This document shows, piece by piece, positions 16,597-33,223 of a stretch of 38,390 bases of DNA. The first letter of the stretch is position 1, and every line of letters starts with the position of its first letter. The notes beneath the pieces are model-generated. The model saw only the letters and a list, made by a program, of their open reading frames with translations. It ran no database searches and had not been told where the DNA came from. The DNA is from a virus: the IMG/VR virus record IMGVR_UViG_3300027797_000003. One strand, written 5' to 3'. Both the position numbers and the translations under genes were made by a program.

Positions 16597-16635
16597 AAAA
16601 CCATCCTAAATGACCGTAGTCATTGATTGGGAATA

Positions 16636-17590: not shown

Positions 17591-17598
17591 ATAGTAGT

Positions 17599-20004: not shown

Positions 20005-20007
20005 GAT

Positions 20008-20364: not shown

Positions 20365-21299
20365 TAGACCGTAATACTCCCTGTTCCTATCCAAGTATAA
20401 ATATGATAACCACCAGTTTTGTTATAACTAGGTGAACCTGTTGTTGCTGTAGCAACATCAAACGAATCAGCATAACGGACAATAACTATGCCTTGATAAC
20501 CTGCTTGACCTGTTCCATATAAACCACCACCACCACCGCCACCGTAGTAGGTTGATACGCCACCGTTGTTAACTGTTCCACCGTTTCCACCCCCACCGAC
20601 TCCACCAGATGCGTCACCAACGGAGTTATTGCCACCGCCACCACCACCAGAATATGCGGTTGATGAACCAGTTATAGACGAATAATGTCCTGTGCCACCA
20701 GTTGAGTTAGAAGTACTATCTGTTGCTGCTGCTCCTGCACCTCCACCACCACAAGCCTTTGCACTTCCACCACCATAATTGCCACCTCTAAAACCCTGAG
20801 TCGGTGAAGATAATGTTCCACCGTTTCCACCACGATTACCACCACCAGATGAACCACCAACAGAGCCATCCCTAGCAGTCGCATCGCCATAAGCACCACC
20901 ACCGCCACCAGTAGCAGTTATGGAACCAAGAACAGAGGCAAGACCATTACCACCATTTACTGTGCCACCTCCGCCAACGGTTACGGTGACAGCAACACCA
21001 GCGGTCACAGTTAAAACAGATTCTGCTGCTCCATTACCACCAGTAGTTTCACCAATAACAGAAGAACGGTAGCCACCACCGCCACCGCCGCCAGCAGGAT
21101 AACTAGCGTTTACTGCGCCTTGACCCCCGCCGCCACCACCAGCAACAACAAGATACTGAAAGTTCGGTGTAGGTGCAGAAGAAACCCCACCAGCCCAATA
21201 ATCGTTAACTTGATTAGTGTTGCCACGCCGTGAGCGTGGCGCAAGTGCGCCACCGCCAATGACCTTTCCTCCAGATGTATTTTTAACAAAAGAAGGCAC
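20364..21299 (-). CDS. Glycine-rich fibre-like protein, 311 aa
   Basis: GTG start; long poly-Gly/Gly-Ser/Thr body; paralog of 19093..20004. Confidence 0.6.
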   Translation of the reverse strand: MPSFVKNTSGGKVIGGGALAPRSRRGNTNQVNDYWAGGVSSAPTPNFQYLVVAGGGGGGQGAVNASYPAGGGGGGGYRSSVIGETTGGNGAAESVLTVTAGVAVTVTVGGGGTVNGGNGLASVLGSITATGGGGGAYGDATARDGSVGGSSGGGNRGGNGGTLSSPTQGFRGGNYGGGSAKACGGGGAGAAATDSTSNSTGGTGHYSSITGSSTAYSGGGGGGNNSVGDASGGVGGGGNGGTVNNGGVSTYYGGGGGGGLYGTGQAGYQGIVIVRYADSFDVATATTGSPSYNKTGGYHIYTWIGTGSITV

Positions 21300-21309
21300 T
21301 TAGCCAACC

Positions 21310-21678
21310 TTACGCAGTAATGCGGTTAACGTACCCGTAAACAACAATACTAGTGTTAGTTGCGGCATAAGCCGTAATAACCTTAGGGGTAGCATTACCC
21401 TGAAGAATAAGACCTGGAACTACTAGATACAAACCGTTTTCAGCCTTAACAGTATATTCAATTTCGTTTGTACCAGCAGTTACACCACCATACTGAATGG
21501 TAAGTTTGCGGTCAGTCGTATCATAGTTGACTGCATACAACCAAACTTCATCAATTGTTGCAGGAGTACTAGAACCTGTGTGAATAGTTGGACCAGCGAC
21601 ACCAGACGAACCAGAGTTAATCAATAACCCCAAACCGTTTGCTGTACCGCTTAATGCTAGTTTAGTAAAAGTTGCCAT
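21310..21678 (-). CDS. Hypothetical beta-rich protein, 122 aa
   Basis: ORF track. Preceded by TAGGGAAC and a GAAGGAAC SD-like element. Confidence 0.6.
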   Translation of the reverse strand: MATFTKLALSGTANGLGLLINSGSSGVAGPTIHTGSSTPATIDEVWLYAVNYDTTDRKLTIQYGGVTAGTNEIEYTVKAENGLYLVVPGLILQGNATPKVITAYAATNTSIVVYGYVNRITA

Positions 21679-21693
21679 ATACTATGTTCCTTC

Positions 21694-21701
21694 GTTCCCT
21701 A
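21694..21701 (-). promoter_or_regulatory. TAGGGAAC junction octamer (copy a)
   Basis: Plus strand reads gttcccta. The TAG is the stop of 21699..22016; the next start (21678) is 15 nt downstream. Confidence 0.5.
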
Positions 21702-22016
21702 ATTAATAAAAATCTGTTGCTCAACCGTATCTGTACGGTTAAATACTTCCAACTCCAACCACTCATCAGGGTCATTGTAATCAAAGTTTAATGTGTCAAA
21801 CTCCAACGGATAAACCCGTACAAAGTAATCGTTTGCCAAATCGCCACGAGTTGCACCTGTAGCACCTGCTGCTACATAAAAATCATACTCTAGAGTCCCA
21901 CGATACTGCAAACCCTTTTCAGACCAAAACGCATACAACAAGTCACCCAAAGTTTGACCCGTTGACGGATACGCCACGGATAGAGCCTCATACATGGCAT
22001 CATTAGTTGTAGTCAT
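21699..22016 (-). CDS. Hypothetical acidic protein, 105 aa
   Basis: ORF track; TAATG coupling to the upstream gene. Confidence 0.6.
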   Translation of the reverse strand: MTTTNDAMYEALSVAYPSTGQTLGDLLYAFWSEKGLQYRGTLEYDFYVAAGATGATRGDLANDYFVRVYPLEFDTLNFDYNDPDEWLELEVFNRTDTVEQQIFIN

Positions 22017-22453
22017 TATCTGTCCTTGCTAACCTTAGTATCCAAACGAAACCTCTGCTCTGATGCTGCGCTAGCGGCAATCAACTCAGTCAACTCACTA
22101 TCAGACAACTCACTGGCTTTGCCGCTATGTTCAACCTGAAGTTGAACGGGAGCCAAACGACCAGTAGCCTGCAAATACAACTTAGCCGAATTGTTATCCC
22201 CCTCAAGAGCACGCTGGAACAGGTTGTCCAGCAACTGTTGTGTTCTTTCGGGTGATTGCTGTTGTTCTGTTACTCTTCGTTCCCACTCGGATTTAAATAT
22301 AGGTTTCTTTTTCCAACGCCTGAGCGTTGTTTCGTCTATAGATTCTTGTTTGGCATACTGGTTTTGACTGGATGGTATCCGACCTACTGATGGGGTACAC
22401 AACCAGTTTAAAAACTTTTCTTGCCGTTCATCCAAGTTAGAGTTTTCTGACAT
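22016..22453 (-). CDS. Terminase small subunit-like / HTH DNA-binding protein, 145 aa
   Basis: First gene of the leftward arm. N-terminal HTH-like segment (SQNQYAKQESIDETTLRRWKKK) and a helical C-terminus. The call rests on position and architecture only. Confidence 0.45.
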   Translation of the reverse strand: MSENSNLDERQEKFLNWLCTPSVGRIPSSQNQYAKQESIDETTLRRWKKKPIFKSEWERRVTEQQQSPERTQQLLDNLFQRALEGDNNSAKLYLQATGRLAPVQLQVEHSGKASELSDSELTELIAASAASEQRFRLDTKVSKDR

Positions 22454-22470
22454 TCTATAGAAGCGGTACT

Positions 22471-22478
22471 GTTCCCTA
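22471..22478 (-). promoter_or_regulatory. TAGGGAAC octamer (copy c), 17 nt upstream of the first leftward gene
   Basis: Plus strand reads gttcccta. No upstream gene here, so the TAG is not a stop codon. Confidence 0.5.
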
Positions 22479-22493
22479 GGGGGACTAGGGGGA
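22476..22493. repeat. Perfect tandem duplication CTAGGGGGA x2
   Basis: ctaggggga at 22476-22484 and again at 22485-22493. Confidence 0.9.
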
Positions 22494-22494
22494 A

Positions 22495-22534
22495 TGTTAC
22501 AGTTGTGTTAATTCTTTGTTACATTTGTGTTACA
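22495..22534. promoter_or_regulatory. Three TGTTACA sites (near-palindromic TGT-N-ACA) at 22495, 22517 and 22528; operator candidates
   Basis: Start-to-start spacing of 22 and 11 bp (helical phasing) inside the divergent intergenic region. Confidence 0.5.
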
Positions 22535-22552
22535 GTTTGAGTGTTTTGTTGT

Positions 22553-22576
22553 GGGTGTTGGGTTTCACAAAAATGG
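22553..22576 (+). promoter_or_regulatory. Degenerate relative of the 22-bp rightward motif
   Basis: GGGTGTTGGGTTTCACAAAAATGG compared with GGGTGTGAGCGTCAAAGATAGG. Only a partial match with an apparent 2-nt insertion. Confidence 0.2.
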
Positions 22577-22579
22577 TCG

Positions 22580-22587
22580 TAGGGAAC
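22580..22587 (+). promoter_or_regulatory. TAGGGAAC octamer (copy g), plus-strand orientation
   Basis: gtcgTAGGGAACaggg in the divergent region, facing the early genes. Confidence 0.4.
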
Positions 22588-22641
22588 AGGGTGTTTTGAG
22601 TATGGGGGGTCAGGGGGGACTCAACCTGTTGGTTTCGTCCC

Positions 22642-22669
22642 GTTAACGCCAGTGCAACGGGGCGTTAAC
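22642..22669 (+). promoter_or_regulatory. 9-bp inverted repeat gttaacgcc / ggcgttaac with 10-nt loop (operator or hairpin)
   Basis: Read directly. Each arm contains the palindrome GTTAAC. It sits just upstream of the AT-rich -10-like region. Confidence 0.45.
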
Positions 22670-22689
22670 CGAGATATTCTATTATACAA

Positions 22690-22695
22690 TATAAT
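22690..22695 (+). promoter_or_regulatory. Consensus -10 hexamer TATAAT (rightward early promoter candidate)
   Basis: tataat within AT-rich gagatattctattatacaatataatac. Only weak -35 candidates (TTAACC at a 19-nt spacing). Confidence 0.35.
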
Positions 22696-22731
22696 ACACT
22701 GGAATGTGTTTAGCGTGGACAAGGATGGGTT

Positions 22732-22857
22732 ATGGAAGTGTTGAGAACAACCGTTGTAGTAGTAGGGTCAGTTTCTTTGACCTTGACAGTACTTGGTCTA
22801 CTTATCAGGATACTGTTTAACGCTGTTGATGATTGGACACATAATGAGTTTGACTGA
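22732..22857 (+). CDS. Possible 41-aa single-pass membrane peptide
   Basis: ATG after AAGGA. Sequence MEVLRTTVVVVGSVSLTLTVLGLLIRILFNAVDDWTHNEFD. Overlaps the next small ORF by ATGAGTTTGACTGA. Confidence 0.35.
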   Translation: MEVLRTTVVVVGSVSLTLTVLGLLIRILFNAVDDWTHNEFD

Positions 22858-22909
22858 TGAAGAGATGGTTTTGTTAAAACTGTTGAAGAAACCGAAACCA
22901 AAGAAGTAA
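22844..22909 (+). CDS. Possible 21-aa peptide
   Basis: MSLTDEEMVLLKLLKKPKPKK. Its stop TAA overlaps the ATG of 22909 (TAATG). Confidence 0.25.
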   Translation: MSLTDEEMVLLKLLKKPKPKK

Positions 22910-23304
22910 TGGGTTACACTAAGCCAGAGTTGCGTGCAAGGATTGTGTCAGCCGTTAAGGCTGGCACTGCTGGTGGTAACGCTGGGCAGTGGTCTGCCCG
23001 TAAAGCCCAAATAGTAGCGCAACGCTACAAGAAGGCTGGAGGTGGGTACAGTGGACCCAAGACCAGTAAACAGCAATCGTTAAGTAAGTGGACATCTGAG
23101 AAGTGGACTACCAAATCTGGTAAACCATCCACACAGGGACCTAAGGCTACAGGTGAACGATATTTGCCTAAGAAGGCTGTGGCGGCTTTGTCTCCTAAGG
23201 AGTATGCTAAGACTAGTGCTGCTAAGCGTAAGGGTACTAAGGCTGGTAAACAGTTTGTTAAGCAACCTAAAGATATTGCTAAGAAAACTAAAGGTTATAG
23301 ATAA
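22909..23304 (+). CDS. Small Lys-rich basic protein, 131 aa
   Basis: ORF track; K/A/G/T-rich with a GERYLPKKAVAALSPKEY core. Confidence 0.7.
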   Translation: MGYTKPELRARIVSAVKAGTAGGNAGQWSARKAQIVAQRYKKAGGGYSGPKTSKQQSLSKWTSEKWTTKSGKPSTQGPKATGERYLPKKAVAALSPKEYAKTSAAKRKGTKAGKQFVKQPKDIAKKTKGYR

Positions 23305-23567
23305 TGGCTAAGACGGCAGCGTGGACAAGAAAAGAAGGCAAGAACCCTAAGGGCGGTTTAAACGCTAAGGGTCGTGCATCTTACAAGGCTCAAACAGGTG
23401 GTACATTGAAACCACCTGTCTCTGCTAAGGCTGCAAAGAAATCACCTAAGAAAGCGGCACGGCGTAAATCGTTCTGTGCAAGAATGGGCGGCATGAAAGG
23501 ACCTATGAAGGACTCCAAAGGTCGCCCAACTCGCAAAGCATTGGCTTTGCGTAAATGGGACTGTTAG
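23304..23567 (+). CDS. Small Lys/Arg-rich basic protein, 87 aa
   Basis: TAATG coupling. Motifs KEGKNPKGGLNAKGR and SFCARMGGMKGPM...LRKWDC. Confidence 0.7.
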   Translation: MAKTAAWTRKEGKNPKGGLNAKGRASYKAQTGGTLKPPVSAKAAKKSPKKAARRKSFCARMGGMKGPMKDSKGRPTRKALALRKWDC

Positions 23568-23589
23568 TTATATAAAAGATTATATAAAA
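23568..23589. repeat. Direct repeat TTATATAAAA x2 (12-bp period)
   Basis: ttatataaaa at 23568-23577 and 23580-23589, immediately after the 23567 stop. Confidence 0.85.
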
Positions 23590-23895
23590 TAAGGGTCCCC
23601 CACAATTAGACCCCCACCCCATGTGACCAAGGTCATAGCATGGACAAGTCGTATAACCCCCCAAAACTAGTACCCCTCTCTGGCTCTAATGCAATAGAGT
23701 ACCAGACGGAGCGTGCCGTAGCCCCCCCCATGCCCCCCCACCCGCATTAGGGTCGTGAATAGTGTCACAATCGTGCGGGAACACGGGCATCCGTGCGCCC
23801 ACATGACCTTCCCAACCAAAAACGGTGCGCTAATCGCAGGCAGGCGGACCCGTGCGAAGCAGACCATTTTTCCAGTGTTCTATATGTGCGGGGGC

Positions 23896-23917
23896 GGGTG
23901 TGAGCGTCAAAGATAGG
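23896..23917 (+). promoter_or_regulatory. 22-bp rightward motif, copy 1
   Basis: GGGTGTGAGCGTCAAAGATAGG. Confidence 0.6.
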
Positions 23918-23971
23918 AGGCAACTGTTCGGCAATGCCACACAGTCACTAACGCTTACGGTGTGTGTGGCT

Positions 23972-23993
23972 GGGTGTGCATGTCAAAGAGTTG
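23972..23993 (+). promoter_or_regulatory. 22-bp rightward motif, copy 2
   Basis: GGGTGTGCATGTCAAAGAGTTG; 76 bp after copy 1. Followed by a 12-bp stem hairpin at 23996-24022 with two G-U pairs. Confidence 0.6.
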
Positions 23994-24043
23994 TTGTGTC
24001 GTTCGGCGTTGCCGAGTGACACGGTGTTCATGCCTGCGTTGGT

Positions 24044-24065
24044 GGGTGTGAGCGTCAAAGAGGTA
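24044..24065 (+). promoter_or_regulatory. 22-bp rightward motif, copy 3
   Basis: GGGTGTGAGCGTCAAAGAGGTA; 72 bp after copy 2 and 81 nt before the ATG at 24147. Confidence 0.6.
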
Positions 24066-24146
24066 GAGTGGTGGTTGCAACATGGTGTTGTGACATTAGG
24101 TGTTCGTGAACGAACAGCCACGCAAGTGATAGTCTGGGAGGACATC

Positions 24147-24392
24147 ATGGCACGCAAAGCAAAAGCAGTAGTATCCGTGTTTGGTCGTTATGCCAAGTGC
24201 GACAAGTGGTGGACGGTTGCGTTTGATAACGCTACCGAGGTGTTGGAAACTGGTACGGTGGTGGATGTCCGTAAGGTGGACGGAAGCGAGAACAAGGTTA
24301 TCATCCAGTCGTTGATTGCTTCGTCAATCGTGGAGTCGGATGAGCAGAACCCAACCTTGTTTTACACTTACACGAAGGTGTCCAGCAAGTAA
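24147..24392 (+). CDS. Hypothetical protein, 81 aa
   Basis: In-frame ATG at 24147 preceded by GGGAGG. The tracked 23964 start would read through the motif copies. Sequence begins MARKAKAVVSVFGRYAKCDKWW. Confidence 0.65.
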   Translation: MARKAKAVVSVFGRYAKCDKWWTVAFDNATEVLETGTVVDVRKVDGSENKVIIQSLIASSIVESDEQNPTLFYTYTKVSSK

Positions 24393-24407
24393 TCACGGTT
24401 GGTTGAG

Positions 24408-24440
24408 GGTACACGAGCAGTTTCCCCCTGTTCGTGTGCC
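24408..24440 (+). terminator. 13-bp stem hairpin with two G-U pairs (plus-sense RNA only)
   Basis: ggtacacgagcag-tttcccc-ctgttcgtgtgcc, 16 nt after the 24392 stop. A second small hairpin (tgcaca-ccg-tgtgca) and a TATAAT at 24462-24467 follow. Confidence 0.5.
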
Positions 24441-24484
24441 TGATTGCACACCGTGTGCAGATATAATGTGACTGGGAGGTCATT

Positions 24485-24631
24485 GTGAGTAATGCAGTTA
24501 TTGAGCGTAAGTTGTTACCTAAGGGCGTGTACTGTTGTCCACGCTGTGATAAGCAGGCTGAGGTGTTTGTGCGTGTTGTTGAGGTGGCTTGTAATCAGCA
24601 TGGACAGATGACTCGCAAAGGGAGGAAGTAA
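24485..24631 (+). CDS. Small Cys-containing protein, 48 aa
   Basis: GTG 5 nt after GGGAGG. Sequence VSNAVIERKLLPKGVYCCPRCDKQAEVFVRVVEVACNQHGQMTRKGRK. TAATG coupling to the next ORF. Below the track cut-off. Confidence 0.5.
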   Translation: MSNAVIERKLLPKGVYCCPRCDKQAEVFVRVVEVACNQHGQMTRKGRK

Positions 24632-24798
24632 TGGAAGCAGTTAGGGTTGGTAGTTTCGTTGTGTATAAGGGTATGCCTAGTAGTCCTATGTTTAGGGTTG
24701 CTGAGGTGGATGGTTGGGGTCAGGCAGTGATTTATGAGTTATCGGGTCGTAGCAAGTACGCTAGGACTGTGGAAATTAGACAACTGGAGGTGGTGTGA
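24631..24798 (+). CDS. Hypothetical protein, 55 aa
   Basis: MEAVRVGSFVVYKGMPSSPMFRVAEVDGWGQAVIYELSGRSKYARTVEIRQLEVV. TGATG coupling on its 3' side. Below the track cut-off. Confidence 0.5.
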   Translation: MEAVRVGSFVVYKGMPSSPMFRVAEVDGWGQAVIYELSGRSKYARTVEIRQLEVV

Positions 24799-25001
24799 TG
24801 TTTAAGCAGGGTGATGAGGTTGCGATTGCCCATAAGGAGGGCATTTGGATTGTTAAGGACGCTGATGAACGCTTTGATAATGCTATGATGTTGGTGTGTC
24901 CTTGGGATGCAAGTGGGTTTGTGTTGTTGGCTGTTCGTGGTAAGGATTGCCAACTGTTAGACCCGAAGCATTGTAAAATCTACAAGAAAGTGAGTGAGTA
25001 A
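24798..25001 (+). CDS. Hypothetical protein, 67 aa
   Basis: ORF track, with the start moved from GTG 24795 to ATG 24798. Confidence 0.6.
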   Translation: MFKQGDEVAIAHKEGIWIVKDADERFDNAMMLVCPWDASGFVLLAVRGKDCQLLDPKHCKIYKKVSE

Positions 25002-25093
25002 TGGATGAATATAATCTAATGCTAATGATTATGGGGTTTGGTGCGTTTTGTGTTCTTATTGGCTACAGCATGGGTAAAGGAGCAGGGAAATGA
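25001..25093 (+). CDS. Possible 30-aa membrane peptide
   Basis: MDEYNLMLMIMGFGAFCVLIGYSMGKGAGK; TAATG and ATGATG couplings. Confidence 0.35.
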   Translation: MDEYNLMLMIMGFGAFCVLIGYSMGKGAGK

Positions 25094-25290
25094 TGTCACG
25101 CAGAGATTATCAGGTGTTAGCAAGGTGCATAGAGTTGGTTGGTGATAATCATAGAGGTAGGGAGGGTGAGGTTGCGTTGGGTGAGTTGGTGGAGGATTTG
25201 TGTAAGCGATTGCACCTAGAAAATCCTCGGTTTGATGTGGAGAAGTTTGTTGCTAAGTGTAATGTGTCGTTGCCACCGAAGGAGGCGTAA
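25090..25290 (+). CDS. Hypothetical protein, 66 aa
   Basis: ORF track. Confidence 0.6.
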   Translation: MMSRRDYQVLARCIELVGDNHRGREGEVALGELVEDLCKRLHLENPRFDVEKFVAKCNVSLPPKEA

Positions 25291-25529
25291 TGTTGCTTTG
25301 GGTTAAGACTGGTTATGGTTGGGAGGCTGATGCACCGTATATTGAGGGTAGTTATATTGTGCAAGGTGCAGTAGGTGAGGGGTTTGTTTTGACAAAGTTT
25401 TGGGATTGTGCTCGTAATGGTGGACAAAATCAGTCGGAGTATGAACATCCGAGGGTGTTTAAGTCATTGCGCAGTGCAAAGGATTGGTGTCAAATAGATT
25501 ATGATGGTCAGTGTGGTTTAACACAATAA
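25290..25529 (+). CDS. Hypothetical protein, 79 aa
   Basis: ORF track; TAATG coupling. Confidence 0.6.
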   Translation: MLLWVKTGYGWEADAPYIEGSYIVQGAVGEGFVLTKFWDCARNGGQNQSEYEHPRVFKSLRSAKDWCQIDYDGQCGLTQ

Positions 25530-25535
25530 TAGGTT

Positions 25536-25559
25536 TCCGTTGGCAATCCTGCCAACGGA
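25536..25559 (+). terminator. Perfect 10-bp stem hairpin tccgttggca-atcc-tgccaacgga
   Basis: Read directly, 7 nt after the 25529 stop. No U-run follows. Confidence 0.45.
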
Positions 25560-25583
25560 TTAGTATGAACTGGGAGGTTCATT

Positions 25584-25994
25584 ATGAGTAAGCAAATATC
25601 GGTTAAGGTTAGTCGGGTTAAGTTGTTGGAGCAGTTGTCGGAGGCATTTCGTAAGGCGAAAGCACTTAGAGATGAATATGATAAGGCTTTGGTTGAATAT
25701 AACAAGAAAATTGAGGGTGTTGAGAAAAAGGTGCTAAACAATTTAGGTAAGGGTAAAGTCACTGAGTTTCGTGATACTACGGGACATTATGACCGTGTGA
25801 ACAAAGTGATTGAGTATCGGTTCACGGTGACTTTTCCTGATACCTTTTTCGTTAAGCCTGAAGCACCTGATTATCCTACAATGTTGAGTCAATATGACTT
25901 GAACGAGTTGGAGCAAATCATTAAAATGCTTGAGTTGTGTGATAGTGATACTGTTTCTACTGGCGTTTATGGTAATGTAGCCCGATACTTGTAA
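25584..25994 (+). CDS. Hypothetical protein, 136 aa
   Basis: ORF track; GGGAGG SD. Confidence 0.65.
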   Translation: MSKQISVKVSRVKLLEQLSEAFRKAKALRDEYDKALVEYNKKIEGVEKKVLNNLGKGKVTEFRDTTGHYDRVNKVIEYRFTVTFPDTFFVKPEAPDYPTMLSQYDLNELEQIIKMLELCDSDTVSTGVYGNVARYL

Positions 25995-26002
25995 TCGGGT
26001 CA

Positions 26003-26031
26003 CCGTGTGGGGGTTCGTAGCCCTCACATGG
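26003..26031 (+). terminator. 11-bp stem hairpin (two G-U pairs) with 7-nt loop TTCGTAG
   Basis: ccgtgtggggg-ttcgtag-ccctcacatgg, 9 nt after the 25994 stop. Followed by tacaatttg and then motif copy 4. Confidence 0.5.
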
Positions 26032-26053
26032 TACAATTTGCACATACACAGAT

Positions 26054-26075
26054 GGGTGTGCGTGTCAAAGATAGG
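26054..26075 (+). promoter_or_regulatory. 22-bp rightward motif, copy 4
   Basis: GGGTGTGCGTGTCAAAGATAGG. Followed by a 10-bp hairpin at 26081-26106 (two G-U pairs); 65 nt before the ATG at 26141. Confidence 0.6.
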
Positions 26076-26140
26076 GAAGTCGGCAACAGCAATTCCGTTG
26101 TTGTCGTATTATCGCCCATTAGGGCAGGAGGAAATACATT

Positions 26141-27466
26141 ATGGCTGGGAAAGCGTTAATTGTTTTATCTGTGAACTGTGCAGATAAATCAGCGAAAGTC
26201 AAATATCAGGTAGAGTCGGAACGGGAGTACGATTATGCTCTGGTACGACTTGACCGCAACACACTCATTAAGGTTGTTGGGTTGTTAGGTCACAAGTTTG
26301 TTGGCAAGTCACCATTATCGTACACACAGTACGAGTTGAAGAACTTGGCTGATAAGTTGATGACAGACCGAACAGACATCGTAATGGGCAAAGGTGTTTC
26401 ACCAACTCCTAGTCCTAGACCAGTTCCGACTGTGCCAGCACCTACGGTGACTGTCACACCTACTGTCCATGCTAAACCAGCAGGGATTGAGGATGCGTTG
26501 CGTAATGTTATCACTGAGGCTATGTCGGCTTACACAGAGAATGGCGTGGACAAGGATGTGGTCACTCAGATAGTGAATGAGGCTATCGGTGCTCATGTTG
26601 CTGAAACACAGAAATCCATTGACGCTTTGACACGGATTATCGCCGAGTCTAAACCTGAGGTGAAACACATTACGCTTACTGGTGGTGTTGTCCGTAAGAT
26701 TGAGGGTCGGACACACTTCCTGTTTGATAAGGTGTTGCGTGTCGTTGATGCAGGGTTATCGCCTTGGATTACGGGGTCGGCTGGTGTAGGCAAAACCATG
26801 CTTGCCGAACAGATTGCTACAGCCTTAGGATTAGAGTATAGTCCTGAGTCGTTCTGTTCGCAGTCATCCAAAGCCGAGGTTAAAGGCTACAAGGACGGTC
26901 ATGGATTGTACCAGTCAGTGGACTTTCGTAAGCGTTTTGAAGAGGGTGGTGTCTACTTGTTGGATGAGATTGACGCTGCGAACCCGAACATTCTGCTTAC
27001 GCTTAACAGTGCACTCAGTAATGGTTGGATGATGTTTCCTGATGGCAAGGTTAAACGCCACGAAAAGTTCGTGGCTATAGCATCAGCGAACACTTACGGT
27101 AACGGTGCTACAGCCGAGTATGTTGGTAGGCAGGTGATTGACGGCTCTACACTTAATAGGTTCGTCAAGTTTGATATGCCTATTGACGAGATTATGGAGG
27201 CTGGTATCGTGAACGACCTATCGGTAGACGCTACTAGTGGTCGTACATGGTTGGACATTGTTCGTAAAGCACGAGCCAATGTTGTTTCCAGTGGACTCAA
27301 AGTTATTATCTCGCCCCGTGACTCGTATCATGGTGCGAAGTTACTTAATGCAGGGTTCACCTTTCAGGAGTGTGTGCCTATGACATTCGGTTCAGGTATG
27401 AAATCTGAACAGTATGCTAAGGTCATGGCAGGTATTACTATGCCTGCTGGTGGTGCTAGAGTTTAA
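26141..27466 (+). CDS. MoxR/CobS-like AAA+ ATPase with N-terminal extension and Pro-rich linker, 441 aa
   Basis: Walker A GSAGVGKT and Walker B VYLLDEIDAA. The following NPNILLTLNSALSNGWMMFPDG...FVAIASANT...STLNRF is typical of AAA_5/MoxR-type ATPases. Confidence 0.75.
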   Translation: MAGKALIVLSVNCADKSAKVKYQVESEREYDYALVRLDRNTLIKVVGLLGHKFVGKSPLSYTQYELKNLADKLMTDRTDIVMGKGVSPTPSPRPVPTVPAPTVTVTPTVHAKPAGIEDALRNVITEAMSAYTENGVDKDVVTQIVNEAIGAHVAETQKSIDALTRIIAESKPEVKHITLTGGVVRKIEGRTHFLFDKVLRVVDAGLSPWITGSAGVGKTMLAEQIATALGLEYSPESFCSQSSKAEVKGYKDGHGLYQSVDFRKRFEEGGVYLLDEIDAANPNILLTLNSALSNGWMMFPDGKVKRHEKFVAIASANTYGNGATAEYVGRQVIDGSTLNRFVKFDMPIDEIMEAGIVNDLSVDATSGRTWLDIVRKARANVVSSGLKVIISPRDSYHGAKLLNAGFTFQECVPMTFGSGMKSEQYAKVMAGITMPAGGARV

Positions 27467-27471
27467 TGCTT

Positions 27472-27498
27472 GGATGTGGGTACACTCACCTACATTCC
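27472..27498 (+). terminator. 10-bp stem hairpin (one bulge, one G-U)
   Basis: ggatgtgggt-acactc-acctacattcc, 6 nt after the 27466 stop and 10 nt before motif copy 5. Confidence 0.4.
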
Positions 27499-27508
27499 CA
27501 GCGTGGGT

Positions 27509-27530
27509 GGGTGTACCTGTCAAAGATAGC
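27509..27530 (+). promoter_or_regulatory. 22-bp rightward motif, copy 5
   Basis: GGGTGTACCTGTCAAAGATAGC; 22 nt before the ATG at 27553 (the spacer contains TAGGAGG). Confidence 0.6.
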
Positions 27531-27552
27531 CGACAACAACTAGGAGGTAGTT

Positions 27553-28383
27553 ATGATTACAGAAGTTATAGACAAGGTTCACATTGACGAGTTTGAGTCG
27601 TTAGGTGAGGCGTTACATTACGCTAAGGCTAATGACAATAGGCGTTCATCGGACGCTCAGCGTGATACAGATTGGGCTGGTTCACGGGACTTAAACACTG
27701 CTGTCCAACTGGGGTTGGATGGTTGGCATGATATTCGTCCTGATGTTGATGCAATGTTTAGTCGTATGGAGGAGCAAATAAATATGTCGCTTGGTGATGT
27801 GTTTGAGATGCGTTACGATTACAGTGGTGATAGTGTGGACATTGACCGTTTCCTTGTGGGTGACCCTGAACACATGATGGATTATGAGACTGTTCCTTCA
27901 GGTAGAATGGGGCGTGTCGTTCGTGTTTTGGTTAATGGTTCTGCTAGTGCGTTTGTTTCTCCCGAACTTATTAGACAGCGTGGTGTTTTAGCAGTAGCGT
28001 TGATTGATGTGTTATCTAAGTTGGGTGTTGGTGTAGAGTTGTGGTTGGAGTCTGCTACAGAGTATAATGACAAATTGCACTCACAACTTATCAAAATACA
28101 TTCATCGGAGGAGCGTTTAGATATTGACAACCTGATGTTTAGCATGGCTCATCCGTCCATGCTTAGACGAGTCGGGTTCAGTATTCTGGAGCGTACTAGT
28201 TGGGCACCTGCTAAGCAGTGCGCTCAACTTGGTGCAGGTTATGGTCGTCCTCACAATTTAACTCAAGGTAAGCGCATTGGTGCTGATGTTGAGATTGACA
28301 AGTTACAGAACGCAACAGGTGACCCTGTTGTGGACGGTGTTGCTTACATTATGTCCACCATTAAAGGATTGGATTTATTGTAA
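27553..28383 (+). CDS. Partner of the AAA+ ATPase, 276 aa; possible VWA-like fold with degenerate MIDAS
   Basis: GRVVRVLVNGSASAFVSPELIRQRGVLAVALIDVLSKLGVGVELWL has the beta-strand / loop / helix / beta-strand layout of a VWA N-terminus. NGSAS sits where DxSxS would be. This is inference only. Confidence 0.35.
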   Translation: MITEVIDKVHIDEFESLGEALHYAKANDNRRSSDAQRDTDWAGSRDLNTAVQLGLDGWHDIRPDVDAMFSRMEEQINMSLGDVFEMRYDYSGDSVDIDRFLVGDPEHMMDYETVPSGRMGRVVRVLVNGSASAFVSPELIRQRGVLAVALIDVLSKLGVGVELWLESATEYNDKLHSQLIKIHSSEERLDIDNLMFSMAHPSMLRRVGFSILERTSWAPAKQCAQLGAGYGRPHNLTQGKRIGADVEIDKLQNATGDPVVDGVAYIMSTIKGLDLL

Positions 28384-28414
28384 GCACAAACAGTGCCTAC
28401 GCTGCGATAGTAGG

Positions 28415-28447
28415 ACGGGGGTTGGACAATGAAACTCCAACCCCCGT
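28415..28447 (+). terminator. Perfect 12-bp stem hairpin acgggggttgga-caatgaaac-tccaacccccgt
   Basis: Read directly; lies between 28383 and the 28483 start. No U-run follows. Confidence 0.5.
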
Positions 28448-28482
28448 TAAATGATAACCCAAACAACAATATGGAGGTAGTT

Positions 28483-29091
28483 ATGAGTAACAAAGTGACA
28501 GGATTATTGTTAAACGCTGGTGTTGGTGGTAGTATAGATACGATTACGGTTGATGGTTTAGAGTCAATTCAGAGTTATGTAGGTGGTACGATTGATGCCG
28601 TCAGGGCTGATGTTTCTGATGATATTTGTGCTGTCGGTTATGTTCATGATGAGGGATTGATACTAGATTTGGAGATGAACTGGTTGGCTAGTGCATTGTT
28701 TTCACAAGAAATTCGTGGTAATGTTGTGTTGGTAAATGGATACAACAAAAACAATTATTATGATGGTGATAATCATGAGTTTCCAGATGTTTTTGTTAGA
28801 TACATGAAAACCTCTTTTCTGAAAAGAGTTGCTGATTGTTACAATGAATCACAAATGATTTCTGCTATGCTACAGTATTCTTTGGATACAGGATTGATTA
28901 CTAAAGAAGCGATTGATAATCTTATGGAGGATTTAGGCGAGGCTATACAGTATGATGATGAAATAGGTTTAGCCGATTTGTCCGTAAAGATTGAAGAGAT
29001 TATGTCCAAACTTGACAACACTATGGGTGAGGAAGCGTCCAATAAACTGATAGATGAAATCTACGAGTTCTTAGACAAAGAGGGCAAATGA
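28483..29091 (+). CDS. DUF3846-like protein with acidic C-terminal half, 202 aa
   Basis: Start moved to the ATG at 28483 (GGAGGTAGTTATG, the same SD context as 27553). The N-terminal pattern TITVDGLESIQSYVGGTIDAV...VGYVHDEGLILDLEMN...GNVVLVNG resembles DUF3846 as I recall it. Confidence 0.5.
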   Translation: MSNKVTGLLLNAGVGGSIDTITVDGLESIQSYVGGTIDAVRADVSDDICAVGYVHDEGLILDLEMNWLASALFSQEIRGNVVLVNGYNKNNYYDGDNHEFPDVFVRYMKTSFLKRVADCYNESQMISAMLQYSLDTGLITKEAIDNLMEDLGEAIQYDDEIGLADLSVKIEEIMSKLDNTMGEEASNKLIDEIYEFLDKEGK

Positions 29092-29648
29092 GTGACACAC
29101 TGATAAAAGTTGATGCCGTTTATGGTATGTGGCAAGGTGAAAGAATATGTGAAATCATGCAATATACCCATGAAATGGGGCATATTTGGACTACTGACAC
29201 CATGCTAAATTATTTTGACAAATTACTGGAATGTTACGACTTGTATCGCAGCACTAACGGTTATGTGTCAGAATCGTTTGACGATATACAGCCATTAAGT
29301 ATGAGTACTACAACTGGTTTTAATCTTGTGAACTGGAAAGCCATAAGGGACTCTGTAATGGATTACTGCATACAGTTCCCTGAGCGGGAACCGTATAGCA
29401 TTATAGAAAAACTTGGTATAACTGTAGAACAATTCCAATGTGCTGTATCAGTGAACAAAAACAAAACTGTAATGAACTCACAGCAGTTTCGTTCATTCAG
29501 TTATGCTTGTTTGGAAGATAACCCAAACTTTGCCAAGATTGGTAGAGACTACGGTACTGGAGTAAATACTATGGTTTTTTACAAGAAACTATTTAGGGCA
29601 ATAAAATTGGCGAGGACAGAAAAGATGATTGATAGTGGTAAGGTATAA
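29088..29648 (+). CDS. Hypothetical protein, 186 aa, possible C-terminal HTH
   Basis: ATGA coupling. The C-terminal FAKIGRDYGTGVNTMVFYKKLF looks HTH-like. Confidence 0.5.
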   Translation: MSDTLIKVDAVYGMWQGERICEIMQYTHEMGHIWTTDTMLNYFDKLLECYDLYRSTNGYVSESFDDIQPLSMSTTTGFNLVNWKAIRDSVMDYCIQFPEREPYSIIEKLGITVEQFQCAVSVNKNKTVMNSQQFRSFSYACLEDNPNFAKIGRDYGTGVNTMVFYKKLFRAIKLARTEKMIDSGKV

Positions 29649-29723
29649 TGAAACTATCGGTTTCGGTACCTAGTACCTCAACCTTACTGTCCATGCTATC
29701 TAGTCTATTAGAAAAGAGAATAA

Positions 29724-30530
29724 ATGAAAATAGATAATGTGAATAAGATAGTTTATGTTAGACAGTCTTGGTTAAATGATATGGTTATCTGTCCTGAAAG
29801 AGCCAGACTTGGTATTATTAGACCAGAGTTCCGTACTGGTAGTGATGCAACTATTATTGGTACCGCTATTCATGCTGGTATTGAGTCGGTGCTGGATGGT
29901 AGGTCATCGGAGTTCGGTCAAATGGTAAATGTCGTTGGTGATAACTACGACATTCTTAAGCAAACCAACTACAAAAAAACCAACATTGACGAGGACATGA
30001 TTCCAGAGTATTTGGAGGCTATGTCATTAGCGTTTTACGACGACATTCTACCGAAAGTAGAATTAGGAGGCAAGGTTGAACATTATTTTAAGGTTCCTTT
30101 GGGTGTTACTATTCAGGACTATGCTGTGTGGCTTGAGGGCACGATGGACTACATCGCACCCAGCGGTCTTATATGGGACTGGAAAACATCATCCCGTGCT
30201 TATTACATCAAGGACAAACAGAAATCCGCTATCCAGCCTACGGTCTATGGTTATGCGGCGAAGTATGAGGGGTTAGCAAATGGTGATATTACCGATTTTA
30301 ATTATGGGATTATGGTTCGTAGTAATCCAAGTAAGTCTCAAATTGGACATATCACCCGAACAGAAGGTCATTATAATTGGCTCAAGTACTTTGTTCGTGG
30401 TGCTGTCGGCTCTTGCCTTAAGGTGGGTACCGATAGCGAGTGGTTTATGAATGACAGCAGTACGCTATGCTCGTCATCATGGTGTTCGTATTGGAGTATC
30501 TGTAAAGGTGCTTTCAATACGAATGATTGA
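29724..30530 (+). CDS. PD-(D/E)XK Cas4/RecB-like exonuclease with Cys cluster, 268 aa
   Basis: N-terminal Cys (VICPERA), GTAIHAGIE, MDYIAPSGLIWDWKTS (D...DxK), QPTVYGY (QxxxY), and a C-terminal CSSSWCSYWSIC. Confidence 0.7.
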   Translation: MKIDNVNKIVYVRQSWLNDMVICPERARLGIIRPEFRTGSDATIIGTAIHAGIESVLDGRSSEFGQMVNVVGDNYDILKQTNYKKTNIDEDMIPEYLEAMSLAFYDDILPKVELGGKVEHYFKVPLGVTIQDYAVWLEGTMDYIAPSGLIWDWKTSSRAYYIKDKQKSAIQPTVYGYAAKYEGLANGDITDFNYGIMVRSNPSKSQIGHITRTEGHYNWLKYFVRGAVGSCLKVGTDSEWFMNDSSTLCSSSWCSYWSICKGAFNTND

Positions 30531-30578
30531 CAGATGAATGTTAATCTAGTTATATCAACAACAAATAGGAGGAAAGAT

Positions 30579-31025
30579 ATGAGTGCCGTATCCAAAGACC
30601 AAAGCATTATTTTGCAGGTCGCAGGTAAGATTGCTGCCGATTTGACAACTAAGCATGAGGACATTAACCAAACTATCACAAATTGGTCTATTGCCTTTGA
30701 TGCTGTATCAGACGCTCTGCTCACCACAATGGGCATGAATATTCTTACACCAGCACAAGGTGAGGCTATGGTTGTAGAAGCGTTTGGTGGTACTGTGGTA
30801 ACACAACCAACACCTGCTTATCAGCCAGCACCTAGTGGCAATGGATTCCAAGTCCGTATCAAAGGACAGCAACACGGACCGATTCCCGAATGGCTACACA
30901 GTGAGTGTGCCAAAGTAGGAGTTACCGAAGTATGGGACAACCGTGATGGTTTGTCTGCCAACCCGAAACGCCCTTGGTTCAAGGCTGTTTCAGGTGATAA
31001 AGCCTTCTGGGCACCACGCAAGTAA
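30579..31025 (+). CDS. Hypothetical protein, 148 aa
   Basis: Start moved to the ATG at 30579, preceded by AGGAGG. Confidence 0.6.
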   Translation: MSAVSKDQSIILQVAGKIAADLTTKHEDINQTITNWSIAFDAVSDALLTTMGMNILTPAQGEAMVVEAFGGTVVTQPTPAYQPAPSGNGFQVRIKGQQHGPIPEWLHSECAKVGVTEVWDNRDGLSANPKRPWFKAVSGDKAFWAPRK

Positions 31026-31037
31026 CGATAGGATACT

Positions 31038-32123
31038 ATGGCTCCTGATTATTCGGAGCGTTGGGCTAAGGCGGGGCGGGGCGAACTTATCGCTCCGCCC
31101 TCCTCGTCTAAGGCTTCATACAACTATTATGTTCCGTTAGTAAAAGCAGCAGACGATTATGTTCACTGGGCGCAAACACCACACGAACGCATCTACCTAG
31201 GGTTCCCTGAGATTGATGCACAAATGCGTGGTATTGCACCATCAGAAATGTGTTTAATTAACGGTTACAGTCACAGTGGTAAAACATTGGTGCTGTTACA
31301 AATCTTGGTTGCTAATCGTGACAAGCGTGTAATTTACTTTTGTCCTGACGAACCACGAACCTTAACACTAATTAAACTGGCTTGCATAACACACGGTATT
31401 GATGCGAATGTCCTTGAGACTAATGTGTCATTGGGTGAACCCAGCAGTATTGCTTTGCTTCGTGAAACAGCGCAAGAGTTCTTTCCGAACCTTGCAGTGT
31501 TTGACCAGACCGTATCCCTTATAGATATGGAACGAGCATTATCTGAGTACACTGATGTTATCGGTGACCCACAACTAATCGTTGTGGATTACCTAGATTT
31601 GATTACAGGTGGTGGCGAGGACATTCCATCTAAGGCAAACAGTATCAAAGCGTTTGGTAAGCGACATAATGTTCCACTTATGGTGTTGCATCAGTCGTCC
31701 CGTACTGCTGGTGCTGACGGCAAAAAGATGACGATTAGTTCGGGTGCTTTCGGTGGTGAACAACAAGCAACACACATTGTTGGTGTACGCCGTAAACGAT
31801 TTGAGATTGAGGGATATGTTCGTGACCTGCAAGAGAAACTTGACAGGGCTACAAACACGGAGCGTATTATAGAGAAAATAGAATCATTGCAATATGACCT
31901 GCGTATCCATCAGGATACGGTTACTGTGAACTTGGTTAAGTGTAAGCGTCCAGCATCAAAACTGTTGGATGACATGGACTTCACTATAGAAGCAGGGACA
32001 GGCAGATTGAACCGTCTTGACAACGGTGTACTACCGTACAAAGAGGACAGACCACTACCACCCACTATAGCAGAAATGGTTGATGCACAGTCAGAAGTAA
32101 TAGACGCACTAGCAGATTGGTGA
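31038..32123 (+). CDS. DnaB-like (RecA-fold) replicative helicase, 361 aa
   Basis: Walker A GYSHSGKT, Walker B LIVVDYLDL, and HQSSR following. Confidence 0.7.
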   Translation: MAPDYSERWAKAGRGELIAPPSSSKASYNYYVPLVKAADDYVHWAQTPHERIYLGFPEIDAQMRGIAPSEMCLINGYSHSGKTLVLLQILVANRDKRVIYFCPDEPRTLTLIKLACITHGIDANVLETNVSLGEPSSIALLRETAQEFFPNLAVFDQTVSLIDMERALSEYTDVIGDPQLIVVDYLDLITGGGEDIPSKANSIKAFGKRHNVPLMVLHQSSRTAGADGKKMTISSGAFGGEQQATHIVGVRRKRFEIEGYVRDLQEKLDRATNTERIIEKIESLQYDLRIHQDTVTVNLVKCKRPASKLLDDMDFTIEAGTGRLNRLDNGVLPYKEDRPLPPTIAEMVDAQSEVIDALADW

Positions 32124-32126
32124 CAT

Positions 32127-33053: not shown

Positions 33054-33223
33054 GCATAGAACAATCAAAGAAACGCAATGCACGACATGGAGCATACAAG
33101 TTCTGGACTTCAATTCCTAAAGCATCCGACATCAAAATTACTAAGGCTGATGGAACTGTTACATATCAGAAGGTTGACAACAAGGCTTATGCGGCTAAAG
33201 TTATTCGTAAGGCAAAATCATGA
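33050..33223 (+). CDS. Small basic protein, 57 aa
   Basis: ATGA overlap with the 33053 stop. Sequence MSIEQSKKRNARHGAYKFWTSIPKASDIKITKADGTVTYQKVDNKAYAAKVIRKAKS. Preferred over the tracked alternate-frame ORF 33078..33284. Confidence 0.45.
   Translation: MSIEQSKKRNARHGAYKFWTSIPKASDIKITKADGTVTYQKVDNKAYAAKVIRKAKS

Follow-up and report, generated by a model that had tools for sequence, protein, structure and literature searches.

In the T7 group (T7, T3, SP6 and K11), promoters are contiguous blocks of ~20-28 bp at gene heads, with an A-rich end followed by purines, a clade-specific variant common to all copies and tandem early copies. The block that we analysed shares this architecture. Unlike in that group, its genome holds no single-subunit polymerase gene, and its G-rich half is predicted to pair with upstream sequence in read-through RNA. 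The middle promoters of B. subtilis phage SPO1 (gp28), T4 (MotA/AsiA) and phiEco32 (gp36) are factor-dependent and bipartite, and transcription starts ~7 nt past the -10 element. The present locus resembles them in its non-host consensus, in a temporal cascade following immediate-early genes with a conserved TATAAT, and in the terminator ahead of the new unit in this phage's relatives, but its geometry excludes a bipartite -10 layout and no full sigma factor is encoded. In N4, the promoter hairpins are template-strand structures with stems of 5-7 bp and loops of 3 nt. Three early sites, hairpins beside a conserved sequence, a syntenic giant ejection gene and a distantly N4-like portal recall the N4 vRNAP promoters, whereas the stems here are 7-16 bp, the loops are larger, G·U pairs work only in the plus sense, and there is no homology to gp50.

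Other described systems act as operators or at the RNA level. The temperate phage L5 carries ~30 stoperators (GGTGGMTGTCAAG) genome-wide, with a known repressor. Its sites, like ours, are asymmetric, contain a similar word (TGTCAA), keep one orientation relative to transcription and lie in short intergenic gaps; in contrast, the present genome has five sites, in the early region only, and neither a repressor nor an integrase was found in it. RNase III sites, such as those of T7 early mRNA and SP82, depend on shape and need little specific sequence. Shared with them are repeated similar hairpins between early genes, of which one is left on the upstream mRNA, and a following tail that is rich in purines and resembles a ribosome-binding site; the block, in contrast, requires an invariant 8-mer as well as a conserved arm. 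The Bs-RNase III sites of SP82, which come with a polypurine 5′ stabiliser, are cited in PMC7509114. Type II hammerhead ribozymes and tRNA-like punctuation offer a further comparison (PMC3088659). Relatives of this phage have such elements at the junction ahead of the AAA gene where copy 4 sits, and in them as in the block a helix ending in GUC precedes the new 5′ end; unlike hammerheads, the element in the window (the whole 38,390-nt stretch analysed) lacks a CUGANGA/GAAA core and has only ~12 linear nt common to its copies.

Five copies of the block and their conservation

The source is an uncultivated ~38-kb freshwater podovirus with a circular map. A pattern search with GGGTGTRNNNGTCAAAGA gave exactly five matches, all on the plus strand (23896, 23972, 24044, 26054 and 27509), against a chance expectation of 0.00 in shuffled sequence, and the same five sites alone were found when two mismatches were tolerated. 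A weight matrix derived from 34 different instances gave scores of 33.7-45.2 at these sites; the next-best site on either strand scored -0.4, and because of this gap we consider that there are no hidden copies. The scan thus gave no sixth copy on either strand and none in coding DNA. The first-pass annotation had described five same-strand intergenic copies with 14 of 22 positions invariant. Pattern search, shuffles and matrix bore out the former and direct reading of the sequence the latter, and the equal frequency inside coding regions that it had named as a counter-argument was not seen. Its 22-bp block proved real in its copies but too short: the logo gave a consensus of ~28 nt, yGyGkGGgt-GGGyGTG-nGy-GTCAAAGA, beginning ~8 nt further upstream.

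Copies 1 (23888-23917, comprising an 8-nt G-rich lead and the 22-mer, and the top matrix match), 2 (23964-23993) and 3 (24036-24065) are in tandem, spaced 76 and 72 nt. Copies 4 (26046-26075) and 5 (27501-27530) lie ~2 and ~3.5 kb from this cluster, precisely at gene heads: copy 4 is 65 nt ahead of the ATG (26141) of a CobS-like AAA ATPase gene, and copy 5 is 22 nt ahead of that of a DUF7192 gene (27553). Two other conserved plus-strand elements flank the cluster. A C-rich non-coding domain upstream of copy 1 (23570-23760) is strongly conserved, and past copy 3 a conserved 5′ leader module (24066-24130) consists of TGGTGG, a hairpin and CATTAGGTGTTCGTGAACGAACAGCC; distant relatives have this module ahead of the AAA gene as well. 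C makes up only 16% of the early coding strand.

The same five positions hold the block in at least nine related genomes, and in relatives with 73-95% AAA-protein identity they are occupied although the flanks have diverged. The lack of conservation in related phages that the first-pass annotation had named as speaking against its proposal was therefore not what we found. In more distant clades, the block positions hold variant cores particular to each clade (GTCATAGA, GTCTTTGA and GTGAC-N2-AAAG). The L142 type has the core CGTCATAGA in an arrangement of three tandem copies plus two; the cores of L011 (GTCTTTGAT) and L143 (GTGTGAC-N2-AAAG) are each common to all copies in the respective genome. 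The only core element kept in all clades is G-(U/A)-C. The L005 core and its ATG are 12 nt apart, a gap that holds the ribosome-binding site (GTCAAAGAGGAGGATTTATG). In four relatives, a canonical terminator (CCACCCCTAGCGGGGTGGTTTTT) separates the preceding genes from copy 1, and no sigma-70-like promoter follows it. At the copy-5 position, distant relatives have TTGACA-17-TACGAT. Furthermore, a perfect, conserved TATAAT lies upstream of the immediate-early genes and canonical promoters are present in relatives; therefore, the hosts seem to use ordinary promoters.

Hairpins and RNA elements around the block

The block's G-rich half provides the 3′ arm of a predicted plus-sense hairpin in copies 2-5. 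At copy 5 (27479-27517, plus strand), the 5′ arm (27479-27491) and the 3′ arm (27505-27517; 4 nt followed by the block's first 9 nt) enclose a 13-nt loop that includes the conserved CCCAGCGT. The 12 inner pairs were formed in all 11 aligned sequences, with two-sided changes (CG to UA and GC to AU, in either direction) as well as G·U pairs, whereas shifted controls were paired in just 27-66% of cells. Covariation thus supports this plus-sense helix. It differs from the terminator-like hairpin previously drawn 10 nt before copy 5, a fold that relatives do not conserve.

When shuffling was limited to the upstream 50 nt, 36 of 50 distinct block contexts had z below -2, and the block was the 3′ arm in 48 of the 50. 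Copy 2 is on the 3′ side of a composite hairpin (23930-23984; z -4.6). Copy 3 provides the 3′ arm of a G·U-rich hairpin (24023-24037 with 24042-24056; z -2.9, and -6.5 in the upstream-shuffle analysis), whose consensus helix over relatives is merely 5-6 bp. At copy 4, 26056-26062 pairs with 26041-26047. No local hairpin was found at copy 1, either here (energy z-score +0.13) or in any relative (-0.65 to +1.73); a long-range pairing with the C-run 23718-23733 is predicted, and no pair in it is double-changed. Helices at the blocks did not reach significance in the clades of L142 and L143, yet the G-rich part was kept. Across copies, the logo showed conserved sequence in the block and a varying upstream pairing partner.

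Two further plus-sense hairpins flank copy 4. The one directly after it (26082-26106) has a conserved T-loop-like loop, GCAAUUC, and two compensatory pairs; such a loop recurs in tRNA-like elements of distant relatives. Hairpins directly following copies 2 and 4, as reported previously, are real. The other (26003-26031) is a tRNA-minihelix-like hairpin of ~11-12 bp with the T-loop-like loop UUCGUAG, which begins 9 nt past the upstream gene's stop and ends 22 nt before copy 4; direct reading showed compensatory changes preserving its helix in L141 and L153. It had been called terminator-like: the helix and its distance stand, but there is no U-tract terminator.

The same operon of relatives contains rule-perfect type II hammerheads of 57-68 nt, all of which fold to a three-way junction. 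In L144, L151, L154 and L156, one lies directly ahead of the AAA gene, at the copy-4 junction, and other relatives have tRNA-like elements with three-way junctions at that site. Because L006 and L142 carry blocks and hammerheads together, the two are not simple substitutes. Rfam gave no known RNA family at the block region, and a self-cleaving ribozyme of known class was excluded for the element, which has no CUGANGA and GAAA core and no Rfam match. An RNA-level reading, with hairpin arms and with ribozymes or tRNA-like elements in relatives, had not been considered in the first-pass annotation.

Candidate readers of the block

A Pfam scan of all called ORFs of at least 48 aa found no RNA polymerase and no sigma region 2, in agreement with the earlier statement that no recognisable polymerase is present. 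That statement had left room for a polymerase hidden in the giant ORF, and a virion-delivered enzyme inside this 1,730-aa ejection protein, with the blocks as its promoters as in the N4 strategy, is hardly credible. The ORF (minus strand; C-terminal part 36016-38263, continuing 2945-1 across the circular junction) encodes the largest ejection-type protein. The gene is syntenic with N4 gp50, the portal's most remote relatives are from N4-like phages, three early sites are in tandem, and larger homologues of 2,200-2,990 aa have both terminal parts in common but vary in the middle. However, the protein has no polymerase features: both predicted half-models are almost all-alpha, a Foldseek search with them returned nothing at E<0.5 and no polymerase fold, profile matches in PDB were weak, mostly coiled-coil or helical and in the middle region, and the hhalign probability with gp50 was 1%. 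In addition, the hairpins contain G·U pairs, which rules out the template-strand folding of N4 promoters.

A candidate trans factor is the 124-aa protein at 34757-35131 (plus strand). This proposal of the first-pass annotation fared poorly: the protein contains sigma-70 region 4 only and is encoded at the far end of the operon. Its recognition helix is nearly unchanged in a clade with a different core. The phage also encodes an AEP primase-polymerase.

A promoter or an RNA signal

The evidence supports a conserved, orientation-specific, non-sigma-70 signal heading rightward gene units; as the first-pass annotation had proposed, the layout is not that of sigma-70, and the block cannot be the -35 or the -10 element of such a promoter. 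We tentatively favour, at somewhat less than an even chance, a factor-dependent, phage-specific promoter whose upstream arms co-evolved to fold read-through RNA. Five intergenic sites, all in gene direction and all occupied in relatives with diverged flanks, count for this reading, and a clade's own core common to all copies is how phage promoters evolve with their reader. The conserved block with its free partner, together with the L142 and L143 clades, points to a block read as sequence, which fits poorly with a paired RNA arm. A lack of transcription upstream of copy 1 would account for its missing hairpin, and for the L005 gene only a start at the block end fits. The terminator before copy 1 without a subsequent sigma-70-like promoter also speaks for a promoter, as does TTGACA-17-TACGAT at the copy-5 position. 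Against it stand the absence of an RNA polymerase or sigma region 2 from the ORFs, and the compensatory copy-5 helix with G·U pairs and the significant hairpins at copies 2-4, which a promoter alone does not predict. Hairpins amid tandem promoters have no obvious use, and the RNA-level devices at the copy-4 position of other relatives weigh on the same side. The main rival is RNA processing or recognition, which we consider possible but doubtful: a nuclease or a sequence-specific RNA-binding protein would recognise each element (a helix, then GUC, then single-stranded AAAGAURG) on a long early transcript from an upstream promoter. Once cut, the upstream mRNA would end in a 3′ hairpin and the downstream one would gain its 5′ end, matching the job of the hammerheads and tRNA-like elements in sister clades. 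Such punctuation requires no polymerase, and it is favoured by copy-5 covariation and G·U pairs that exist in the plus sense only, by the frequency of stable contexts with the block as 3′ arm, by the ribozymes and three-way junctions in relatives, and by G-(U/A)-C as the sole all-clade core part in a C-poor strand. Mycobacterial RNase E cleaves immediately 5′ of cytidines (PMC10641625), which is only a lead here. On the other hand, the 3′ arm is conserved in sequence while the 5′ arm is free, helices in L142 and L143 are not significant, copy 1 has no local helix and its long-range partner is a predicted one, and it is not obvious what three tandem cleavage sites would do in a leader. The strong terminator with no promoter after it, the joint presence of blocks and hammerheads in L006 and L142, and the Rfam result also argue against punctuation.

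The remaining explanations fit less well. A DNA operator of the stoperator type, at which a phage protein (for example, one with sigma region 4 only) switches off or modulates early transcription, is unlikely. The block resembles the L5 site, is asymmetric and keeps one orientation in short intergenic gaps, the reverse complement of its core has TTGAC(A/G), with TCTTTGAC(R) on the bottom strand, and a region-4 helix-turn-helix protein is encoded at the operon end; however, the sites have no other promoter-like sequence to regulate, the recognition helix hardly follows the core, no repressor or integrase accompanies them, and the hairpins are left unexplained. An antitermination signal of the nut or rrn boxB-boxA type, in which hairpin and box load a phage or host factor onto elongating polymerase, is quite improbable. 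It would suit a hairpin with an invariant linear box after it, placed between genes and towards the promoter end, and the L011 variant GUCUUUGAU, which resembles boxA sequences. However, a single site per operon would be enough, whereas the phage has five with three in tandem; the core in the window complements a boxA-like word; the genome showed no recognisable N- or Q-like protein; and replacement by ribozymes is unexplained. It is very improbable that the repeats are replication iterons, primase sites or a CRISPR-repeat mimic (an RNA anti-CRISPR). The motif is repeated, a primase-polymerase is encoded, and a hairpin with an 8-nt tail recalls class 1 CRISPR repeats; solitary CRISPR repeats occur in phage intergenic DNA (PMC10651486). 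Yet the iteron-like use suggested earlier fits the layout poorly, with two copies exactly at gene heads far off the cluster, the arms differ among copies, so that no single repeat is mimicked, and collection scans found no CRISPR array with this repeat. We give least credence to an ordinary host promoter, whether for the primary sigma, an ECF-type sigma or sigma-54. GTCAAA resembles the -10 of E. coli sigma-E promoters, and the logo has GG and GC doublets at sigma-54-like spacing. However, a conserved -35 is absent, the most conserved part would fall between the -12 element and the start site, the core-to-ATG distance in L005 is only 12 nt, sigma-70 scan matches were no more numerous than in shuffled sequence, and the TATAAT of the immediate-early genes and the canonical promoters of relatives suggest that the hosts use ordinary promoters.

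If the block is a factor-dependent promoter, a contiguous ~22-28 bp would be read, the G-rich part and then GTCAAAGA, and transcription would start in or just past AAAGA. The reader would be a phage-supplied specificity factor, either an immediate-early product or virion-delivered, rather than the host primary sigma alone. Because upstream transcripts would read through them, the C/A-rich segments just upstream of copies 2-5 may have co-evolved to fold the G-rich RNA into a hairpin, which may serve as a cap for the upstream mRNA and may prevent the G-rich RNA from pairing with the C-rich template. With a tandem of three promoters heading the rightward operon and single ones ahead of the AAA ATPase and DUF7192 genes, the block would be a clade-specific, DNA-acting start signal for the delayed-early and middle genes of these phages.

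Copies, extent and conservation of the block

An 18-nt pattern search returned five occurrences of the block in the window, where none is expected by chance. All lie on the plus strand, starting at 23896, 23972, 24044, 26054, and 27509, and they correspond exactly to the five same-orientation copies claimed by the first-pass annotation. A logo built from 34 distinct instances in the window and nine relatives showed that the conserved block extends from ~8 nt 5′ of the reported start to just beyond GTCAAAGA, and that the 8 positions after GTCAAAGA are almost free of C. When both strands of the window were scanned with a matrix, the five sites scored 33.7–45.2 and everything else scored −0.4 or lower. 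The logo and the scan describe a contiguous ~20-bp block repeated at gene heads, as is typical of T7-like promoters.

In IMG/VR relatives whose AAA proteins are 73–95% identical, the block occurs at the same five places with diverged spacers; the motif is thus kept at equivalent positions in relatives, where the first-pass annotation had proposed looking for it. More distant clades retain the layout, with the core altered jointly in all copies of a clade. The variant core is CGTCATAGA in one such clade (three tandem copies and two dispersed), GTGCGTCTTTGAT(A/G)GG in another, and GTGTGAC-N2-AAAG in a third. Such changes in concert are the behavior of a cis signal co-evolving with a trans-acting reader. 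The block is a real, conserved cis signal.

The identical 127-nt ends of the window (1–127 and 38264–38390) indicate a circularly assembled phage genome with a true length of 38,263 nt. Owing to the arbitrary start point of this assembly, a giant ORF of 1,730 aa on the minus strand, which spans the circular junction, is split in the window (36016–38263 plus 1–2945). The virion and lysis genes run leftward (2945–22453) and include an SU10/P22-type portal, an SU10-type adaptor, a T4-type large terminase, glycine-rich fibers, a PA14 protein, and VanY and SLT lysis enzymes. The plus-strand, rightward genes (22909–36025) encode two small basic proteins (DUF5872 and DUF6321), seven small ORFs without a family match, a CobS-like AAA ATPase followed by DUF7192 and DUF3846 proteins, and a 124-aa protein with sigma-70 region 4 only (34757–35131). 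A PD-(D/E)XK nuclease, a DnaB-like helicase, an AEP primase-polymerase, and RusA, together with the CobS-like AAA ATPase/DUF7192 pair, form the replication set in 26141–33053, in which no DNA polymerase gene was recognized. Copies 1–3 stand in tandem at the head of the rightward operon, copy 4 before the AAA gene, and copy 5 before the DUF7192 gene. The early coding strand shows an extreme GC skew (+0.37 to +0.43 in 24000–26000), and the base composition of 24147–27466 is 16% C and 30% G.

The tRNA search detected no tRNAs in the window. Neither this search, nor a bacterial-genome scan with the AAA alignment, nor portal and terminase searches gave a lead to the host; an actinobacterial host, suggested by the glycine-rich fibers, Thr/Pro linkers, and strong ribosome-binding sites, is only a guess. 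The sole GenBank relative is a distant metagenomic podovirus from a Florida spring (MW202803.1). It has no block; repeated GTTTCC-N4-GGAAAC hairpins lie upstream of its early genes (1100–2300). The early leaders of six relatives (L145, L150, L154, L158, L161, and L166) contain the repeated words CATAATC / GATTATG and GCATTATGCGTAGGAAA, which may be these distant relatives' own equivalent of the block.

Two other non-coding regions of the window are conserved. A ~190-nt C-rich domain at 23570–23760 (TATATAAAATAAGGGTCCC...GACCCCCACCCCATGTGACC...GCCGTAGCCCCCCCCATGCCCCCCC) is better conserved than the adjacent genes, and its C-run motif is retained even in the most distant relatives. Its role could be that of a leader RNA, of a site for packaging or at a genome terminus, or of a site for Rho loading. 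The second is a divergent control region at 22454–22700, with G-runs, in which the inverted words TGTTCCCTA and TAGGGAACA flank three TGTTACA repeats. A small membrane-peptide ORF is probably located at ~22740–22860.

RNA structures at and near the blocks

We found the clearest structure at copy 5, where a 12–13-bp helix pairs 27479–27491 with 27505–27517, so that the block contributes its first 9 nt to the 3′ arm. Among 11 sequences, the 12 inner pairs were paired in all, two pairs switched between CG and UA and between GC and AU, and G·U pairs were common; shifted registers, used as a control, were paired in only 27–66% of cells. Copy 5 therefore shows the compensatory changes expected of a structured RNA. 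At copy 4, block positions 2–8 pair with an upstream CGCACAT in the RNAalifold prediction, with partial support from covariation, as most changes were one-sided. The consensus helix of copy 3 is only 5–6 bp long and weakly supported, and the long-range pairing predicted for copy 1 showed no covariation. In two clades with variant cores (L142 and L143), the helices were not significant, yet the G-rich block is still conserved. Using 50 distinct block contexts with shuffling confined to the upstream 50 nt, we obtained a median folding z of −3.75, with z < −2 in 36 of them. All contexts with z > −1 were copy 1, apart from one extra site in the relative L007. The G·U pairs restrict the block helices to the plus sense, so that they can function only as RNA.

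These structures differ from known classes. The N4 virion-RNAP promoter hairpin forms on the template strand with a 5–7 bp stem and a 3-nt loop, whereas the stems in the window are 7–16 bp with loops of 4–15 nt, and their G·U pairs would become C·A mismatches on the template strand, which argues against an N4-type hairpin. The block hairpins are followed by GUCAAAGA instead of a U tract, and the terminator scan lists no intrinsic terminator at the blocks. Rfam gave no match at E ≤ 1 across the whole window and, at E ≤ 10, a single chance-level S15-leader in 23550–27600. Known ribozyme classes were rejected, as there was no Rfam match and the copies have too little sequence in common. No hammerhead core (CUGANGA + GAAA) was present near any block in the window. 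Ahead of copy 4, the window has an ~11–12-bp hairpin with the 7-nt loop UUCGUAG (26003–26031), which resembles a tRNA acceptor/T-arm minihelix and begins 9 nt after a stop codon. Its helix is maintained in L141 and L153 by compensatory changes, and in L239 the same hairpin lies ahead of an additional block copy. A T-loop-like hairpin lies at 26082–26106.

The relatives contain rule-perfect type II hammerheads (GGAC-GAAA-stem III-GUC-stem I-CUGAUGAG-UCC), a type documented in phage-derived sequences (PMC3088659). We identified 14 such loci in their early operons, all with a complete catalytic core, compensatory stem changes, and a predicted three-way junction; they include L006:9055–9111, L141:2515–2580, and L142:3824–3881 and loci in L008, L144, L146, L151, L154, L156, L159, L165, and L181. 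Some lie immediately before the AAA gene, the place of copy 4 in the window, and others separate the first and second early genes in close relatives in which all five blocks are present as well. At the place matching the relatives' hammerheads, the window has two plain hairpins (24393–24484). Rfam cmscan reported none of the relatives' hammerheads, indicating that its sensitivity is limited here. Other relatives (L145, L147, L150, L155, L158, L166–L170, and L175) carry a three-way-junction tRNA-like element just upstream of the AAA gene, composed of a closing stem of 6 bp that shows compensatory changes, a variable hairpin, a T-arm-like hairpin (GCAG-UGCAAUU-CUGC), and then CUAUGGUGG.

Promoter classes and the search for a polymerase

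Sigma-70-like consensus matches were no commoner in the window than in shuffles, and none coincided with a block. The logo contained no second promoter element. In L005-type relatives, copy 5 is GTCAAAGAGGAGGATTTATG, with the core 12 nt from the start codon and the ribosome-binding site between them; the core therefore cannot be the −35 or −10 for that gene. The scan, this geometry, and the logo rule out a sigma-70-type promoter (−35/−10 hexamers 16–18 bp apart, start ~7 nt after the −10) and bear out the remark in the first-pass annotation that the layout is not bipartite. Geometry and the missing second element likewise ruled out ECF and sigma-54 readings. The block is not the −35 of a downstream −10 either: the sequence after it shows no conserved −10, and in L005 such an element would have to lie within the gene. 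For a leftward promoter via the bottom-strand TTGAC, only copy 1 has TATAT at the right distance, without the final T, and there is nothing to transcribe on that side. Elsewhere, a perfect, conserved TATAAT lies at 22690–22695, upstream of the first rightward genes, with TTAACC 19 nt further upstream. Canonical U-tract terminators follow the first rightward genes in four relatives, and distant relatives have TTGACA-17-TACGAT at the place of copy 5.

L5-type stoperators come with a cognate repressor and numerous sites throughout the genome; the window has only five sites, and the searches detected neither a repressor nor an integrase family. A CRISPR-repeat mimic (Racr) would be nearly identical to a host CRISPR repeat; no CRISPR arrays occurred among the collection-scan matches. 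Looking for co-variation between the core and the sigma-region-4 protein was uninformative.

In Pfam and PHROGs scans, no called ORF of at least 48 aa matched an RNAP family or sigma region 2, in agreement with the first-pass annotation, and thus the cognate single-subunit RNAP gene that T7-like promoters would call for was not found. The promoter idea put forward there survives only in part: the conserved signal at gene heads stands, and the RNAP was not found. Its suggestion that the giant ORF might be the factor or polymerase gained no support from sequence, profile, or fold searches. The giant ORF has 45 homologues; a precomputed Pfam domain (PF09397) is recorded for just one of them, the 2,987-aa P0040. 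Conserved N-terminal (~130–580) and C-terminal (~1220–1710) parts are common to proteins of 2,200–2,990 aa, and the middle region is variable and coiled-coil-like. AlphaFold models of the two halves were almost wholly helical at moderate confidence (pLDDT 64–66), and Foldseek against the PDB returned nothing at E < 0.5 and no polymerase. The family profile gave only weak PDB matches in the middle region, most of them to coiled-coil or helical proteins, and comparison by hhalign with N4 gp50, the virion RNAP, gave a probability of 1%. On these results, combined with the Pfam, PHROGs, and PDB sequence searches, we rejected a polymerase role of the giant ORF as unsupported and treat the protein as the largest ejection protein. 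Modeling in halves splits any domain spanning residues 580–1220, and a cryptic domain may have escaped the models.

Readings of the block and their meaning

The block is a previously undescribed variant of phage-specific transcription punctuation. Our tentatively preferred reading is that it may be a factor-dependent promoter with co-evolved RNA-folding arms. Several features argue for a start signal at the DNA level. The sequence of the block itself is conserved, whereas its pairing partner varies freely; the G-rich part is kept even where the helices are not; and copy 1, which comes first, lacks a local hairpin. Terminators lie ahead of the unit in relatives, the first three copies are in tandem, and other clades have a canonical promoter at the copy-5 position. 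The hairpins might cap the upstream mRNA and hold the G-rich RNA off the C-rich template. We give less credence to the block being a site at which RNA is processed or recognized. This rival is favored by the helix that covaries, by the ribozymes and tRNA-like elements that relatives carry at the corresponding junction, and by the failure to find a DNA-reading factor; the start-signal features weigh against it. Mycobacterial RNase E cuts just 5′ of cytidines (PMC10641625), and an enzyme of this kind might be linked to the blocks.

Smaller shares fall to an operator, a nut-like site, a host promoter, iterons or a repeat mimic, and a hidden virion polymerase. In the last case, the blocks would be early promoters for an RNA-synthesizing activity that enters with the DNA, its polymerase being hidden in the family of 1,700–3,000-aa ejection proteins. 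The portal has its most distant relatives among N4-like phages, and the position of the giant gene corresponds to that of N4 gp50, with no detected sequence similarity between the two; we consider this reading highly improbable. If it were true, a 38-kb podovirus would follow a strategy like that of N4, with a polymerase of a kind that current sequence and fold searches miss.

If the block acts at the RNA level, these phages would be able to cut an operon transcript at a single junction in three interchangeable ways, by means of a site read by a protein, a hammerhead ribozyme, or a tRNA-like element. As a natural experiment, the group would bear on the question of why self-cleaving ribozymes are found in phages. 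If the blocks are instead factor-dependent promoters, a widespread group of freshwater podoviruses would redirect transcription via a compact, portable ~28-bp signal and a putative factor, a takeover achieved without a phage polymerase or a full sigma factor. Finding that factor would then add a new way to seize host transcription, as well as orthogonal parts for synthetic biology.
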